Positions 34,702-42,369 of a stretch of 64,000 bases of DNA are shown piece by piece. Numbering within the stretch: the first letter of the stretch is position 1; the number at the start of each line of letters is the position of its first letter. Position numbers and translations under genes: made by a program. This stretch comes from Clostridia bacterium (GTDB lineage: Bacteria > Bacillota > Clostridia > UMGS1883 > UMGS1540). The stretch is taken from positions 14,622-78,621 of the forward strand of contig JAZSIR010000002.1 in the NCBI GenBank assembly GCA_045533905.1, read 5' to 3'. The notes under the pieces are model-generated. The model was not told where the DNA came from. It was given only the letters and a program-made list of their open reading frames with translations, and did not search any database.

Positions 34702-35892
34702 CTACTCTGTATCTCTGCCGGGCACGATAACTTTATCGAGGATATTCGTAAGCTTTGCGATGACCATACCGTAGTTTGTAATCGGCACGCCCTGTCCCTC
34801 GGCCGCCGCAATTCTCGACAGCACGTGGCGGCGGTTAAACATACAGGCGCCGCAATGGATAATGAGGCTATAGGGCGAAAGGTCTTTCGGAAAATCGTTT
34901 CCGCCGACTACATCCACCGACAGCCCTTCCCCCACCTTTTTGCGAAGGAGAACTGGAATTTTCACGCGGCCGATATCTTCCGAGGCCGGCGCGTGTGTGC
35001 AGGCCTCCGCAATCAGAATTCGGTCGTTTTCCGTAAGCCTTTCGATGGCCCCGGCCCCTTCAAGGAAGGTTTTCGCATCCCCCTTGGCATCGGCAAGTAG
35101 GACAGAAAAGGAAGTAAGCGGAATACCTTGCGGCACCTTTTCGTACACCGTCTTAAAAGCCTGCGAATCGGTAATAATAAGATCCGGCGGCGAAGACAAG
35201 CGCCCAAGTGCCGCCTCCATCGTTTCGGGCGTTGTGCAAATCGGAATACAGCCGCGGTCAAGAAGCTCGCGTATCGTCTGTACCTGCGGCAAAATGAGCC
35301 TTCCGCGCGGTGCAGAGGCATCCTGCGGCATTACAAGGAGCACAACATCGCCGGGCTTTGTCACCCGCCCTGTTATGCTTCTTTCCTCAGCCGCGAACGG
35401 CGAGAGGGCAGCGCGAATGTTGGAGAATCCCTCGCCTTTTTTTGCACTTACGCGAAGGAGTGCATTTTCACACACCGCTTCCGCTTTTTCTGCGGCGGCA
35501 GAATCCTCCCCGAGGTCTGTTTTATTCATAACGGGCAAAACGGGGATTTTTTTGGCCTTGCACAAATTGGCCCATTCTTTCTCCATCTCGCCGAACTCGC
35601 CTGCAAAGAGCAGGATGGCCACATCCGTTTTTTCGAGCGCTTCGCGCGTTTTCGAAACGCGAAGTTCCCCAAGCTCGCCCGTATCGTCATACCCTGCGGT
35701 ATCGATGAGCACGCACGGCCCTACACCGCGGATTTCCATATTCTTATATACAGGGTCTGCCGTGGTACCGAGTGTATCGGACACAATAGCTACCTCTTGC
35801 CCCGTGAGAGCATTGATAAAGGAGGATTTACCGGCGTTTCGGCGCCCGAAAATCCCGATATGAAGACGCGCTGCGCGCGGTGCTGTTTCCAT
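34702..35892 (-). CDS. hydF: [FeFe]-hydrogenase maturation GTPase HydF
   Basis: GRRNAGKSS, DTAG, NKTD, GRLILPQ, CTH...HCGAC cluster motif. Confidence 0.96.
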   Translation of the reverse strand: METAPRAARLHIGIFGRRNAGKSSFINALTGQEVAIVSDTLGTTADPVYKNMEIRGVGPCVLIDTAGYDDTGELGELRVSKTREALEKTDVAILLFAGEFGEMEKEWANLCKAKKIPVLPVMNKTDLGEDSAAAEKAEAVCENALLRVSAKKGEGFSNIRAALSPFAAEERSITGRVTKPGDVVLLVMPQDASAPRGRLILPQVQTIRELLDRGCIPICTTPETMEAALGRLSSPPDLIITDSQAFKTVYEKVPQGIPLTSFSVLLADAKGDAKTFLEGAGAIERLTENDRILIAEACTHAPASEDIGRVKIPVLLRKKVGEGLSVDVVGGNDFPKDLSPYSLIIHCGACMFNRRHVLSRIAAAEGQGVPITNYGMVIAKLTNILDKVIVPGRDTE

Positions 35893-35904: not shown

Positions 35905-37317
35905 TTAAAAACGGAAGTCGCGGCTGCCCTCGTGCATACGGGCAATATTTTCCTCCGCAATTTTTCTTACTTTTTCATTCGGAATCCGCAGGAGTTCATT
36001 CGTAATCAGCCCTTCCCCGATTTTCCGTGTTTCGGGCGAGGCGTAATCCTCCAGATATTCCTGCAGCGTCATCAGCGCATTCGGCTGGCAGCAGTTGGCA
36101 ATCTGTCCGGATTTTACGAGCTGCATAAACCGGTCGCCCGTGCGGTTTTCGCGGTAGCAGGCGGTGCAGAAGCTGGGAATATAGCCGAGCTTCATCAGCC
36201 AGTTTACAACCTCATCAAGCGTACGTCTGTCATCGATCTCAAACTGGATGGACTCGTTATCTTCCTCCGCATAGCCGCCTACGCTTGTGCGCGAGCCGCC
36301 GGAAAGCTGCGAAACGCCGATTTTGAGAAGGCGTTCGCGCATTGAAGCCGATTCTCTTGTCGATACAATCATACCGGTATACGGCACCGCGAGGCGGATG
36401 ACTGCCACAATTTTTTCAAATACATCGTCAGCAACGGCATTGGAAAATTCATCGGCATTAACGCCGTCTGCCGGGCGGATACGCGGCACACTGATGGTGT
36501 GCGGGCCCACGCCCTTCGCAGCCTCAAGATGCTCCGCGTGCATAAGAAGACCTACAAAGTCATAGCGATAGAGATTGAGACCGAACAAAACGCCGATACC
36601 AACATCATCAATACCGCCATCCATAGCACGGTCCATCGCCTCTGTATGGTAGGCATAATTGCTTTTCGGACCCGTGGGATGGAGCATTTTGTAGTTTTCC
36701 TTATGGTATGTTTCCTGGAACAGGATGTACGTGCCTATTTTTGCCTCGTGCAGGGCACGATATGCCTCCACCGTGGTTGCGGCAATGTTCACATTTACGC
36801 GGCGTATAGCGCCGTTTTTGTGCTTTATGCTGTAAATGGTGTCAATACTCTCGAGGATATAGGAAAGCGGCGAATGCACGGGGTCCTCGCCCGATTCGAG
36901 CGCAAGGCGCTTATGCCCCATATCCTGAAGGGCAATTACCTCTTTGCGGATTTCTTCCTGCGAAAGCTTTTTACGCGGAATGGTGCAGTTGCCGTGGTGA
37001 TACGGGCAATATACACAGCCGTTTACGCAGTAATTCGAAAGGTACAAGGGTGCAAACATAACGATGCGGTTGCCGTAAAGGCGCATTTTCAGTTCGTTTG
37101 CCACCTTGAAAATCCGCGCATTTCTGTCGGGAATCGTGCACTCCAAAAGCACGGCCGCCTCTCTGTGGTCAAGCCCGCCGCCTTTTTCCGCCTTATCAAT
37201 AAGCTTATCAATAAGCGTCGCATCTTCTTTGTGCGCATCGGCGTAAAGAAGCGTTTCTTCAATCTCTGCATGGTTTATAAATTCTTCCGCTTTGGATGAT
37301 TTAACATCGTATTTCAT
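35905..37317 (-). CDS. hydG: [FeFe]-hydrogenase radical SAM maturase HydG
   Basis: APLYLSNYCVNGCVYC, FQETYH, C-terminal CTACYR...C second cluster motif. Confidence 0.96.
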   Translation of the reverse strand: MKYDVKSSKAEEFINHAEIEETLLYADAHKEDATLIDKLIDKAEKGGGLDHREAAVLLECTIPDRNARIFKVANELKMRLYGNRIVMFAPLYLSNYCVNGCVYCPYHHGNCTIPRKKLSQEEIRKEVIALQDMGHKRLALESGEDPVHSPLSYILESIDTIYSIKHKNGAIRRVNVNIAATTVEAYRALHEAKIGTYILFQETYHKENYKMLHPTGPKSNYAYHTEAMDRAMDGGIDDVGIGVLFGLNLYRYDFVGLLMHAEHLEAAKGVGPHTISVPRIRPADGVNADEFSNAVADDVFEKIVAVIRLAVPYTGMIVSTRESASMRERLLKIGVSQLSGGSRTSVGGYAEEDNESIQFEIDDRRTLDEVVNWLMKLGYIPSFCTACYRENRTGDRFMQLVKSGQIANCCQPNALMTLQEYLEDYASPETRKIGEGLITNELLRIPNEKVRKIAEENIARMHEGSRDFRF

Positions 37318-38333
37318 TGGTAGTCTCCTCTCACGGCTAAAATCGTATAGCCCATATTTTCTATTTTGCGGCATACCTCGGCAATCGGCTCTGCCGCTTT
37401 ATTATCATAAATTGCATATTGTCCGTGCCGTGCAGGGGGCGAAAGGTTGGGCATCACAACATTGGCACCTGCCGAAATTCCCTGTTCCCTGCCTCCAGGC
37501 GAAAGCGTAGCCAGCGCCGTAGTAGCCGGCAGAAGCGCCCGTCTGTGCATCAGCCGCAAGACAGAAAGGAGCTTGACTGTAAGGGCAAGGCTTCCCGCCG
37601 CCTCTCTTCCAAACGGCGTTTCCTTTTGCGGCAAAAACGGCCCGATACCGATCATATGCGGTTTGAAGTCTTGCAAAAACAAAAGGTCCTCCGCGATATT
37701 TTCCACCGTCTGATACGGCGAGCCGACCATAAACCCTGCGCCCACCTGATAGCCAAGTGCTTTCAGATTTTCAAGGCATGCGATGCGCGAGGAAAGCTGC
37801 ATCGAAGAAGGGTGTAGTTTTTCATAATGCGCGGGCGTTGCTGTCTCATGGCGCAGAAGGTATCTGTCCGCCCCCGCTTTGCGAAGCGTTTCGTACGAAG
37901 TCGCGCTGCGCTCCCCAAGGGAAAGGGTGACGGCTGCATCGGGGTATTTTTCCTTGAGCTTTCTGATGATACTTACAAGGCGCGCGTCTGTAAAATATCC
38001 GTCCTCACCGCCCTGCAACACAAAGGTGCGAATGCCTTCCCGGTATCCGCTCTCCGCCGAAGCGAGAATTTCCTCCTCCGTAAGGCGATAGCGCACCGCC
38101 TTTTCGTTACTTCTGCGAAGGCCGCAGTAGAAGCAGTCATTTTTACAGAAGCTGCTAATTTCAATAAGACCACGAAGGTAAATATTTTTCCCGAACACAG
38201 CATCCGTCGCCTCGCGCGCCGCAATGCGGATTTCTTCATCAAATTCGTCTCCGGAAAGCAGCGACAGCATATCTTCTTTTGTAAGCCATTTGCCTTCCAC
38301 AAGACGGGCAAATGCTTTTTTTGCATCCATCAT
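37314..38333 (-). CDS. hydE: [FeFe]-hydrogenase radical SAM maturase HydE
   Basis: RGLIE.S..CKNDCFYC, YLLRHET, PATTAL, GANVVMPN, YDNK. Confidence 0.95.
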   Translation of the reverse strand: MMDAKKAFARLVEGKWLTKEDMLSLLSGDEFDEEIRIAAREATDAVFGKNIYLRGLIEISSFCKNDCFYCGLRRSNEKAVRYRLTEEEILASAESGYREGIRTFVLQGGEDGYFTDARLVSIIRKLKEKYPDAAVTLSLGERSATSYETLRKAGADRYLLRHETATPAHYEKLHPSSMQLSSRIACLENLKALGYQVGAGFMVGSPYQTVENIAEDLLFLQDFKPHMIGIGPFLPQKETPFGREAAGSLALTVKLLSVLRLMHRRALLPATTALATLSPGGREQGISAGANVVMPNLSPPARHGQYAIYDNKAAEPIAEVCRKIENMGYTILAVRGDYQ

Positions 38334-38575
38334 ATCTTTGCGTAAACGGTTTTCGCCGTCACGCCCTCCAGCATACCAAGCTTCCCGGAAACGGACGCCG
38401 TAACGGCTTCCGGTGCATCCAGAACGACGCTGATGACCGAAATGTTCCGTTCTCTGTACGGGATGCCCATTCTTCCCACAATATATTGCCCTGCATCGTG
38501 CAGAATCTGATTGATTTTCTCAGCAGAATCCGTGTTTTCCACAATTATGCCGATATGTGCAATTCTGTTTTCCAT
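38330..38575 (-). CDS. TM1266-family iron-only hydrogenase system putative regulator (ACT-like)
   Basis: RIA.IGIIVE, IVGRMGIPY, SGKLG.L.GV.AK; first gene of the hyd operon. Confidence 0.88.
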   Translation of the reverse strand: MENRIAHIGIIVENTDSAEKINQILHDAGQYIVGRMGIPYRERNISVISVVLDAPEAVTASVSGKLGMLEGVTAKTVYAKI

Positions 38576-38589
38576 TGTTCCTCCTATAC

Positions 38590-38719
38590 AAAAAGGCCGT
38601 TCCCCCAAAAAGGCGGAACGGCCATACTACTGCCCTATTTGAAATTCCGCCTTCGCGGTCGGGACGAACCCTTCCTCTCAGGTTTCTTTCAGTATAGCAT
38701 ATTTCGATATATCCGTCAA
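38590..38719 (-). promoter_or_regulatory. Sigma-A promoter plus attenuator leader of the hyd maturase operon
   Basis: TTGACG-N17-TATACT (38719-38691); terminator GGCCGUUCC/GGAACGGCC-UUUUU (38623-38590) with a competing antiterminator. Confidence 0.7.
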
Positions 38720-38724
38720 GCTTT

Positions 38725-39516
38725 TTATTCACCAAGCGCCGCCAGCTCTTTTTTGGCGCAGGCAAGAACGAACGGATACGTATTCTTCTGCAGAATTTTC
38801 CCGTATACATTTCTGGCTTCCTTCAGCTTACCAAGCTTTGCAAGGCTTCTGGCCTCAAAAAGCTGGAGTCTCGCAAGGGAATGTCTATCCTCAAATCCGC
38901 GGCTTCTCGCAGTTTCCAGAGCGTCCAGCGTTTCTTCATACTTTTCGTCCGCATAATAGAGAAGCGCGCGCGAAAACCGAACGTGCGCAAGCGAAATCGC
39001 CTCGCCCGCCTTTTCAAAAAGCGGTTGTCCCTTCGTATAGGCTGCTTCCGCACGGACCAGCTGCCCGTTTTCCGCACAAAACGCGGCGAGGTTGCTGTAA
39101 TACATTGCCCTTGAAATCTTATCGGCAGCGGACATATCCATCGCATCCATCACACGGATGGCCTCTCCATACTCACCCATCGCCTCATATCCGACAGCAA
39201 GGTTTAAAGAAAGCGTTTCCTTTACCGCACGGTTACGCGTTTTTGCGATTGCCTTTTCGGATTCCCGCACAAACTTTTCCGGGTCTGCTTCCTTATACAG
39301 AATGTCAAGAAGCGTATCGGCGAGCTTTCTTCCGCGGACGCTCCGTATGCCGTAAAAGAGTGCAAGCCCCACGGCCAGTGCCAGAAAAAGCACAATGCCG
39401 AGCATCTGCAAATAGCCTCCTCCCAGAAAAATCAGATAGAAGAAGGAAATACCGAGACCAAGACCTACGGGCGCGCCGATTGCAAAGCCTATAAACTGAC
39501 GCATACGATTATTCAT
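38725..39516 (-). CDS. Membrane-anchored TPR-like protein
   Basis: Two N-terminal TM helices followed by helical TPR-like repeats (NLAVGY..MGEY.EA). Confidence 0.75.
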   Translation of the reverse strand: MNNRMRQFIGFAIGAPVGLGLGISFFYLIFLGGGYLQMLGIVLFLALAVGLALFYGIRSVRGRKLADTLLDILYKEADPEKFVRESEKAIAKTRNRAVKETLSLNLAVGYEAMGEYGEAIRVMDAMDMSAADKISRAMYYSNLAAFCAENGQLVRAEAAYTKGQPLFEKAGEAISLAHVRFSRALLYYADEKYEETLDALETARSRGFEDRHSLARLQLFEARSLAKLGKLKEARNVYGKILQKNTYPFVLACAKKELAALGE

Positions 39517-40688
39517 CGTGCGGCCTCCTGCTTAAGTGCCGCAAGGACTGTCTCAAGGCTTTCGCCGGCAGAAAAACGCTTGTAGATCGCAAGGATGCGC
39601 GCGGTATCGGTAAGGCCGCTGATATCCGCAAGCACCTCGTCTACGGTCTTTTCCGTAAGCACATCATCATACTTAAAGCAAAGTGCCGCCGCGATTGCCG
39701 CTTCGATGTAGATGGAATCCACATTCTGTTCCTGACACATACGGAGTGCACCTACGAGGCGGTCGCCACTCGAAAGCTTACGGCGAAGGTCACCGCCGAC
39801 GCGCTTTACCGTGTCGCCAAGGCCGCGGTTTGCAAAGCGGCGGATGAGATCCTGCACGTGTGCATACAGCGCCGCCGTATCGCCATTATGGCGTTTGGCA
39901 AGGGCAATGGCAGAAGCCGTCATCGCGCGGATGACCAGAAGCTCCACCGTCGGATTCTCAATAGCCTGCCAGATGTATTCGCACCCTAAAAGGTCACCAA
40001 GATACGCCGTCATCGCATGGCCCATATTGTGGATGTAGAGCTTGCGCTCGATATAGTACGAGAACGGTGCATACCAGATTACGTTCTTAATCGGCGGAAA
40101 TTCGCCGCGAACGGCTGCTTTATCAAGCGGCAGAATGTCATACGCTTCCACACAGACGCGAAGCGGATTTCCCTTTTGCATTTCGGGCGTCTGCACCGGC
40201 ACCATACGGCCGATGGACGCTTCCACAAAACCTACAAGGCTATCAAGCTTTTTGGTTTCTGCTTCCTCTAAGTTCTGGGCGATTAAATCTCTTAAAACCT
40301 TGTCGGCACCGATAAGGTTTTCGCAGATGATAATATTAAACGGTGTATCGTTGCCCTCTTCCCAGCGCTTTTTAAGGCCGCCTGCGATGGGGGCTGCAAT
40401 AAACTTCAGAATGTTTACGCCAACGGCTGTGGCCATAACGTCTGCCTTTGCAATCGCTTCCGCTACAAGCTCGGGCTTTTTACCGTCCACACAGGAAATA
40501 TTCTCTGCCCATTCCTCGCGCACGCCATCCTCCACCAGAATATCTACGGGATAGCGGTGGGAAGCGTTCATAGCCTCAATAACCGTATCGTTTACATCTA
40601 CAAACGATACTTCATAACCGGACTGCGAAAGGAGAAGGCCAATAAACCCTCTTCCAATATTACCGGCTCCGTACATTACTGCGCGCAT
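39513..40688 (-). CDS. mtlD: Mannitol-1-phosphate 5-dehydrogenase family
   Basis: YGAGNIGRGFIG, TAVG, CEN, RMVP, ERKLYIHNMGHA, RKL...DRL. Confidence 0.85.
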   Translation of the reverse strand: MRAVMYGAGNIGRGFIGLLLSQSGYEVSFVDVNDTVIEAMNASHRYPVDILVEDGVREEWAENISCVDGKKPELVAEAIAKADVMATAVGVNILKFIAAPIAGGLKKRWEEGNDTPFNIIICENLIGADKVLRDLIAQNLEEAETKKLDSLVGFVEASIGRMVPVQTPEMQKGNPLRVCVEAYDILPLDKAAVRGEFPPIKNVIWYAPFSYYIERKLYIHNMGHAMTAYLGDLLGCEYIWQAIENPTVELLVIRAMTASAIALAKRHNGDTAALYAHVQDLIRRFANRGLGDTVKRVGGDLRRKLSSGDRLVGALRMCQEQNVDSIYIEAAIAAALCFKYDDVLTEKTVDEVLADISGLTDTARILAIYKRFSAGESLETVLAALKQEAAR

Positions 40689-40701
40689 TGTTTCTTCCTC
40701 C

Positions 40702-42369
40702 TTATACTTCCGTAATGACCGGCAGAATAACCGGCTTCCGTTTTGTTTTTTCAAAAATGAACTCGCCAAGCATATTGCGGATGGCTGTTTTCATACCGTT
40801 CCAGTCGCCATTCCCATGGCTTTTTGCCGAAAGGACGGCATCGGTCACAATGTCCTTCATTTCCTCAATAAGGTCCTCACTCTCGCGGACATAGACAAAG
40901 CCGCGGGAGATGATATCGGGCCCTGCAAGAATTTCCTTTTCTGCGGAAAGCGTAACCACGGCCACGATAAGGCCTTCCTCACCGAGATGCTTACGGTCAC
41001 GAAGCACAATGTTTCCGACATCGCCGACGCCGCTACCGTCTACAAGCACCTGCCCTGCTGCCACATTGCCGCAGACGGCGGCGCCGTCCTCCGTCATTTC
41101 GAGAACTTCGCCGAGGCCCATAACAAATATGTTTTCCGGTGCCACTCCCATAAGCTCACCCAGCCGCGCGTGGCGCACCAGATGGCGGTGCTCCCCGTGC
41201 ACGGGGATGAAGTATTTCGGTTTTACAAGACCGAGCATAAGCTTCAGTTCCTCGCTGCAGGCGTGACCTGAAACGTGCACTTCGGCAAGCGATTCGTAAA
41301 TAACCTCCGCACCCTTTTTGAAAAGCTCATTAATAACGGACGAAACGGCTTTTTCATTACCGGGAATGGGATTTGCAGATAAGATAACAATATCCCCGTA
41401 CCCAATTTCCACACTTTTATGGTCCGAAAATGCCATACGGGTAAGAGCGCTCATCGGCTCGCCCTGGCTGCCGGTAGTAACAATGACAAGCTGCTGGGGC
41501 TTGAAGCGGTTGATATCCTCAATCGGGATAAGCGTTCCACGCGGGATGTGCAGATAGCCAAGCTCTGTGGCCACTTCGCACATCGTCAGCATACTGCGGC
41601 CCAAAATGGCCACCTTACGCTTCTGGCGGACGGCGGAATTGACAATCTGCTGAATGCGGTGTACATTTGAAGCGAAGGAAGCTACGATGATGCGCTTATC
41701 CGAAGAGTTTTCAAAAATTTCGTCGAAGCGTTCCCCAACGGTGCGCTCACTCATTGTATACCCTGCGCGTTCCACATTCGTACTGTCGGAAAAGAGCGCT
41801 AAAACGCCTGCTTTTCCAAGATCGCCAAAGCGCGTTAAGTTAATCATTTCACCATTTATGGGCGTGCAGTCAATCTTAAAGTCGCCCGTGTGCACCAAAA
41901 CGCCGACGGGCGTGTGAATCGCAACGGCAAGTGCCCCTGCGATGCTGTGGTTTACATTGATGAACTCCACCTTGAAGTTCTGGCCGATTTTCTTCATGGA
42001 GCCGGGCTTTACCGTGCAAAGCTCCACCTCCGAAGCCATACCGTGTTCGCGAAGCTTGTGTTCGACGAGCCCCAGCGTCATACGGCTACCGTAAATCGGC
42101 GCATTGAAGGTTTTGAAAGCATACGGCACGCCGCCGATATGGTCCTCGTGCCCGTGTGTGAGGATGACGCCGCAAACCTTCTTCCTATTTTGGGCAATAT
42201 AAGAAGTGTCGGGAATTACAAGGTCAATCCCGAGCATGCTTTCACTTGGGAAGGCCAGGCCGCAATCTATGACCAGGATTTCCTCTCCGTACTCGATTAC
42301 GGTTACATTTTTTCCGATCTCATCGAGCCCCCCCAGCGGAATAATTTTAAGTTTTTCTTGTTTCGACAC
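40702..42369 (-). CDS. rnj: Ribonuclease J
   Basis: PLGGL.EIGKN, THGHEDHIG, HTGDFK, GSQGEP, HVSGH, PVHGE. Confidence 0.97.
   Translation of the reverse strand: MSKQEKLKIIPLGGLDEIGKNVTVIEYGEEILVIDCGLAFPSESMLGIDLVIPDTSYIAQNRKKVCGVILTHGHEDHIGGVPYAFKTFNAPIYGSRMTLGLVEHKLREHGMASEVELCTVKPGSMKKIGQNFKVEFINVNHSIAGALAVAIHTPVGVLVHTGDFKIDCTPINGEMINLTRFGDLGKAGVLALFSDSTNVERAGYTMSERTVGERFDEIFENSSDKRIIVASFASNVHRIQQIVNSAVRQKRKVAILGRSMLTMCEVATELGYLHIPRGTLIPIEDINRFKPQQLVIVTTGSQGEPMSALTRMAFSDHKSVEIGYGDIVILSANPIPGNEKAVSSVINELFKKGAEVIYESLAEVHVSGHACSEELKLMLGLVKPKYFIPVHGEHRHLVRHARLGELMGVAPENIFVMGLGEVLEMTEDGAAVCGNVAAGQVLVDGSGVGDVGNIVLRDRKHLGEEGLIVAVVTLSAEKEILAGPDIISRGFVYVRESEDLIEEMKDIVTDAVLSAKSHGNGDWNGMKTAIRNMLGEFIFEKTKRKPVILPVITEV

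Follow-up and report, generated by a model that had tools for sequence, protein, structure and literature searches.

The control of [FeFe]-hydrogenase maturation is poorly known, and TM1266 has so far been a 'putative regulator' with neither a target nor a DNA-binding domain. The window analysed here (the whole stretch of 64,000 nt from a Clostridia contig) carries on its minus strand a TM1266-hydE-hydG-hydF operon, and the question raised by this locus is whether the RNA ahead of TM1266 governs the expression of the maturation genes and, if so, what reads it. We found the leader to hold a real and uncatalogued RNA element of the attenuator type, probably an OFF-switch, that is widely conserved among anaerobes of gut and soil; through it TM1266 gains a concrete candidate target of 33 nt.

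The leader of the maturation operon

The four genes, namely TM1266 (38330..38575, 81 aa), hydE (37314..38333), hydG (35905..37317, with a probable start at 37317 that overlaps the hydE stop) and hydF (34702..35892), score above the curated cut-offs of TIGR03959, TIGR03956, TIGR03955 and TIGR03918 (respectively), which bears out the names given to them in a preliminary description of this DNA. Upstream of the TM1266 Shine-Dalgarno (AGGAGG, 38580..38585), a single sigma70-like promoter was found on the same strand (38691..38719; TTGACG-17-TATACT, -35 at 38719-38714 and -10 at 38696-38691, 10/12 matches), which is weak on its own (0.9 such promoters are expected in shuffles) and has similar counterparts in the same place in relatives. 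Judged by this promoter, transcription would start at ~38685 and the leader would measure ~110 nt. As only 14 nt separate the U-tract of the leader from the TM1266 ATG, there is no room for a second, downstream promoter, which would have counted against the preliminary description. The upstream gene ends at 38725 and no terminator was found between its end and the leader promoter, so that upstream transcripts (from 38725-40688) could enter the attenuator too; the two genes in question, both on the minus strand, are mannitol-1-phosphate dehydrogenase-like (38725-39516, below curated cut-offs) and membrane/TPR-like (39513-40688, 263 aa). Away from the maturation operon, the source genome encodes four Fe_hyd_lg_C hydrogenase-type proteins (G000; C1, C3, C15).

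Folding of the leader (minus strand) yielded three mutually exclusive elements, all of them conserved: an intrinsic terminator (38590..38623; 9-bp stem GGCCGUUCC/GGAACGGCC followed by UUUUU, -24.3 kcal/mol by itself), a 9-bp antiterminator in which every pair is Watson-Crick (38653-38645/38618-38610), and a sensor hairpin as anti-antiterminator (38650..38682), composed of P1 (38682-38680/38652-38650), P2 (38675-38674/38658-38657) and P3 (38671-38669/38663-38661). The 5' strand of the antiterminator (38645..38653) overlaps the 3' side of the sensor, and its 3' strand (38610..38618) lies within the 5' arm and loop of the terminator, which a generic terminator scan missed and folding shows. In constrained folds the terminator and antiterminator states are nearly equal (-37.9 and -38.2 kcal/mol, pair probabilities 0.27 and 0.73), the leader is more stable than its own shuffles (z -2.4 at 96 nt, z -3.0 at 116 nt), and in growing transcripts a 5' hairpin folds first and the antiterminator takes over from ~75 nt. 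The sensor is weak at this locus (-11.5 kcal/mol, P2 having two standard pairs only), and an alternative hairpin, CCGC-GAAG-GCGG (38658-38647), exceeds the conserved fold in stability by ~1 kcal/mol in the window copy. The terminator, the antiterminator, this alternative and the upstream CCUGAGAGG...CCCGA all lie on the minus strand where the preliminary description had placed them; the small UUCG hairpin that it noted is likewise present, with a loop (UUCGU between GGG and CCC) that is not the canonical C(UUCG)G tetraloop.

A conserved two-fold symmetric hairpin

Within the phylum of the window, to which the genomes examined belong, TM1266 is present in 46 of 61 related genomes, and a further 80 TM1266 loci (the best 80 of 129) were taken from the genome collection. 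The upstream regions share an element of ~33 nt that reads CU-GA-N, a stem of 2-3 bp, RA, a 3-bp stem capped by a variable loop, and a mirror half ending in RAAG. Being made of two inverted copies of 5'-CUGA/RAAG-3', this hairpin is two-fold pseudo-symmetric; its internal loops are GA/RA (3x3 and 2x2), three columns of the alignment are invariant, and some leaders hold it in tandem. A descriptor score of at least 12 was reached by 48/120 non-redundant upstream regions and by 0/240 shuffles. In the alignment of 52 matches scoring at least 11.5 (L055, L062, L072, L074, L112 and L115 having been dropped by hand as near-duplicates or doubtful), RNAalifold recovers 8/9 assigned pairs, 89.7% of the cells pair (slid controls at most 58%) with 126 double-sided changes, and covariation reaches 0.63 in this set, itself selected for pairing, versus 0.24 shuffled and at most 0.23 slid. 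Because of that selection, letters-only patterns in which P2 is left free were run: over all loci then collected (many of which had been obtained through the model), 32 matches outside the alignment had 90/96 free positions paired (48 when shuffled). Furthermore, among 30 loci from a different class, selected on the protein alone, 14 letters-only matches (six sharing one stem sequence and one not lying in a leader) had 41/42 free P2 positions paired, as against 24.8 when shuffled and a maximum of 37 in 5000; a correctly placed model match (E<=0.05) was present in 18 of these 30 loci, one of them a training locus.

By comparison, the four pairs of CCGC-GAAG-GCGG form in 46.6% of the cells of the 52 homologues (50.6% in the slid control), and this element, which the preliminary description took for the anti-antiterminator, has to cede that role to the larger hairpin: the stretch earlier called 'upstream' is the conserved, two-fold symmetric sensor itself. 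That the conserved letters are instead a DNA operator (a direct repeat CTGA-N4-RAAG), or a mere terminator of the unterminated upstream operon, we hold to be highly improbable. The motif does often lie just after the -10 box, and Rex is predicted as a DNA-level regulator of the C. thermocellum TM1266-hydG unit (in the available part of PMC8457756), but changes in the spacer letters come as complementary pairs, the distance between the repeats shifts by several bases, the motif keeps to the sense strand, co-varies with a distant terminator and is also found inside operons at ribosome-binding sites, and TM1266 is without the NikR DNA-binding domain.

The coupling of the hairpin to what follows it is seen in the terminators that lie behind 47/52 training matches and 34/54 held-out matches (hand-picked as lying in leaders). 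In those 34 leaders the 3' end of the motif reaches a mean pairing energy of -12.5 kcal/mol with the terminator of the same leader, versus -9.05 for non-cognate terminators and -7.2 for shuffled arms, and 0/5000 permutations were as good. Of the 20 held-out matches that have no terminator, 14 stop 5-11 nt short of a start codon (in most cases that of hydG) and have the purine-rich Shine-Dalgarno in the 3' end of the hairpin. Here a stabilised hairpin would shut off translation by masking the Shine-Dalgarno of hydG or a transporter gene, so that in either layout a more stable hairpin spells OFF. The action of the hairpin family at ribosome-binding sites, as well as its position at the head of importers, was absent from the earlier reading.

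Term-seq of Sporomusa sphaeroides KIAC, in the available part of PMC12456013, gives a primary start for the TM1266 gene (Data S2), a 221-nt cis-regulatory transcript that holds no gene and ends before TM1266 (CO2 condition only), and a read-through unit spanning TM1266 and hydG, the TM1266 leader being one of 47 ends in the cis-regulatory class of that genome. For the window locus, a search of sequencing runs listed none of RNA. Leaders of the other class measure 216-221 nt from the -10 box to the U-tract in five of six cases (198 nt in the sixth), and this similarity in length to the published transcript suggests that the KIAC TM1266 leader carries the hairpin motif.

Rfam gave no match at E<=10 over 36000-41000 and none at the motif in 12 homologous loci at E<=1, in agreement with the preliminary view of a conserved OFF-type attenuator outside that catalogue. 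Its other suggestion, a resemblance to the TPP aptamer, turned out to be local (CUGAGA and CGAAGG in the window copy): the TPP riboswitch (RF00059) has no match at E<=10, a J3/2 UGAGA combined with P1-P2-P3 was not found, CUGAGA occurs in only 2/52 members, and the sensor begins ~3 nt after the probable start, with nothing 5' to form P1-P3. The pan RNA motif (RF01749), described in the available part of Weinberg 2010 (PMC2864571) as a simple interrupted stem, often tandem, with two bulged A, to which a dimeric protein was proposed to bind and which precedes panB/panC/panD in Firmicutes, is similar in its interrupted stem, its tandem copies and its position upstream of cofactor-synthesis operons. 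It exceeded the cut-off in 0/61 related genomes and had no match in the source genome (with a positive B. subtilis control), whereas the hairpin has two GA/RA internal loops and precedes TM1266, hydE/F/G, lyase, importer and nitrogenase-like genes, with no panB/panC/panD. Kink-turns (box C/D motifs) are marked by a 3-nt bulge followed by tandem G-A pairs; the loops here are 3x3 and 2x2, and the RAAG strand has no 3-nt bulge. No published description of the hairpin was found in the literature searched, from which most subscription papers fell outside; the supplement of Narunsky 2024 (107 protein-binding candidates, 427 unnamed motifs) may include it, its main text having no 'radical SAM', 'maturation' or 'iron'. 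The supplementary files of Stav 2019 (11) and Brewer 2021 (one) contain no hyd terms, and those published for C. autoethanogenum and A. bakii held nothing decisive in the 12 of 19 files searched in each case. A 'PanR' regulator with a NikR-like domain was likewise looked for in this literature and not found.

TM1266 as the candidate reader

We scanned 151 genomes of the class with a covariance model (40 positions, insensitive); TM1266 and HydG were scored in 150 of them (G153 unscored). Matches at E<=0.01 occurred in 36/84 genomes with both proteins (4 of these 36 having contributed to the model), in 9/16 with TM1266 and no HydG, in 0/13 with HydG and no TM1266, and in 1/37 with neither, this lone match lying inside a coding sequence. 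TM1266 is carried by 45 of the 46 genomes with a match (base rate 100/150), and the p of 0.002 for the co-occurrence overstates it, as the genomes are related. Genome-wide matches at this threshold were missing in 55/100 TM1266-bearing genomes, many of which were recovered by targeted scans. Such unfiltered scans of 6-kb hyd loci gave a correctly placed match in 10/17 loci with TM1266 (17 of 20 loci scanned) versus 1/13 without it, the latter including three (L208, L211 and L212) where hydG sits inside another operon whose head may lie beyond the fetched stretch. The one targeted exception, G137 (97% complete, 90 contigs), has a full-quality motif before hydG and no TM1266 match. The RNA tracks TM1266 rather than HydG, and a dedicated protein co-occurs with it, as in the protein-dependent attenuator class; this favours TM1266 as the candidate reader, an option that the preliminary description had left beside a riboswitch. 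The co-occurrence nonetheless fits 'TM1266 reads the RNA' and 'both belong to one module' alike. In the control panel, T. maritima has TM1266 together with HydG, and B. thetaiotaomicron has HydG with no PF21699 match; viral contigs searched for TM1266 relatives yielded none.

A protein-free riboswitch aptamer for a metabolite or ion (SAM, cysteine, a tyrosine product, Fe2+ or a CN/CO-iron complex), with TM1266 merely co-regulated, appears unlikely to us. In its favour stand features typical of riboswitches (a position near the probable +1, transcriptional and translational platforms, tandem copies in some leaders) and the G137 motif, but an unbranched 33-nt hairpin with three invariant columns, a variable loop and two-fold symmetry speaks against an aptamer, as does its presence in just one of 13 HydG loci of TM1266-less genomes.

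The structure model of TM1266 (pLDDT 96) has a stand-alone ACT-type fold, nearest to TM1266 of Thermotoga maritima (PDB 2NZC; 2nzc, Z 15.7, rmsd 0.8, 79 aligned) and to the C-terminal domain of NikR (2y3y, Z 12.8, rmsd 1.6, 79 aligned). NikR possesses a ribbon-helix-helix DNA-binding domain that TM1266 is without, and, unlike the NikR C-terminal domain, TM1266 lacks any conserved Cys, and a single His is conserved in part (H26, 61/75). An almost invariant GRMG-x-P strand and the basic residues R4, R35, K65 and K75 are kept. Self-association of the protein is predicted with a score of 0.75, as against 0.00 for the best control, with a contact agreement of 94% or more and a pLDDT of 86 or more; the mark was reached by 20/30 solved pairs and 1/23 single chains. 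This prediction probably draws on the four-chain 2NZC, and a symmetric oligomer of this kind would suit the symmetric RNA site. Domains of the ACT/NikR-C kind usually act as ligand sensors and not as binders of nucleic acid, and the structural neighbours of TM1266 are mostly regulatory domains; both points would favour the view that another protein (e.g. cofactor-loaded HydF or apo-hydrogenase) binds the hairpin, with TM1266 as a partner at most. We judge this to be quite improbable, given that the motif persists (E<=0.01) in eight of the 13 genomes in which TM1266 stays and HydE, HydF and HydG were not found.

On balance, we consider it probable that the hairpin is a feedback OFF-switch, to which a predicted oligomer of TM1266 would bind so as to stop the TM1266-hydE-hydG-hydF operon. 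While no partner is bound, the antiterminator would displace the weak hairpin in the lengthening transcript, and transcription would run on into the operon; with the oligomer on the hairpin, the antiterminator strand would be blocked and the terminator would form. In the ribosome-binding-site layout, the hairpin stabilised over the Shine-Dalgarno would block translation. The effector would report that enough H-cluster is present; the simplest candidates are the diiron subcluster in its finished form and a late precursor of it, and the interface within the ACT/NikR-like oligomer may be the sensing site. In PyrR attenuation, a protein-stabilised anti-antiterminator overlaps the antiterminator, expression is OFF when the protein is bound, the regulator is encoded in the operon, and both transcriptional and translational uses occur. 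The proposed hyd switch would work in the same way, being of the OFF type with a candidate regulator in the operon; it differs in the fold of the protein (ACT/NikR-C and not phosphoribosyltransferase), the RNA consensus, the symmetric site and the pathway, and the PyrR binding site (RF00515) itself was set aside, with no Rfam match and no pyr gene context. The RAT of the LicT/BglG/SacY family is a ~30-nt hairpin with two internal loops and pseudo two-fold symmetry, read by a symmetric dimer of CAT domains; it is an antiterminator, ON when bound, whereas the hyd hairpin is an anti-antiterminator, OFF when stabilised, and the proteins are unrelated. If our reading is true, a stand-alone ACT/NikR-type domain that reads RNA would constitute a new class of attenuation protein, and the switch may matter for the engineering of hydrogen production in clostridia and acetogens.

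Importers and other genes behind the hairpin

Verified matches head TM1266, hydG, hydE, lyase-hydF, ABC importers (which carry NMT1/THI5-like binding proteins), ECF S-components and nitrogenase-like genes. Among the 16 genomes with TM1266 and no HydG, 13 also have no HydF and no HydE over cut-off, an absence that means 'not found', as the genomes are drafts (93-100% complete). In 12 of these 13 an importer lies right behind TM1266: an ABC importer or its binding protein in nine (L175, L241, L174, L242, L254, L245, L246, L247 and L248) and an ECF S-component-like gene in three (L244, L250 and L249), G099 having neither type. [FeFe] hydrogenases are encoded in 5/5 genomes tested (four of the 13 and G154), with hydA directly upstream in three of the five. 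In the source genome, the importer binding proteins had no tblastn match, and the search for a second hairpin copy gave just one weak match (E 0.085) within a coding sequence.

The regulon points to named importers in genomes with hydrogenases but without maturases. Cofactor regulons typically place the making and the importing of a compound under a single switch in this way, which suggests a sensed and imported compound from the HydF step or later; apo-hydrogenase is able to incorporate a synthetic diiron complex. As a tentative and rather bold extension, TM1266 and its symmetric RNA may serve to sense the diiron cofactor of [FeFe] hydrogenases in a dedicated feedback loop, which would be the first case of H-cluster supply being controlled at the RNA level; the ABC (NMT1/THI5-like binding protein) and ECF importers under their control, in HydE/F/G-less bacteria with hydrogenases, may take from neighbours the [2Fe]H subcluster in its finished form or one of its late precursors. 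If this were true, the H-cluster would be a cross-fed, vitamin-like cofactor and maturase-less hydrogenases would be explained; that many organisms without maturases still make active hydrogenases is a stated problem in the available part of PMC11216029.

In L201 (G154) and L251 (G120), whose genomes have HydE and HydF and no HydG match, genes of nitrogenase-like type with NifH and component-1 domains follow the motif or separate TM1266 from hydF, accompanied in L201 by a FecCD-type importer; the nitrogenase-like genes may replace HydG. By eye, a NifH-like start also follows TM1266 in L256, L264-L266 and L268. In L167 (G148:C19), the motif and a terminator precede a seemingly truncated TM1266 start. 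Units of an aspartate-ammonia-lyase-like gene and hydF are preceded by the motif in L141, L147, L203, L236, L237 and L285. The last of these belongs to the cultured organism Acetobacterium bakii (the genome of L057), which has three copies (L287, L285 and L286), preceding TM1266-hydE-hydG, lyase-hydF and an ABC importer, and would make a good experimental host.
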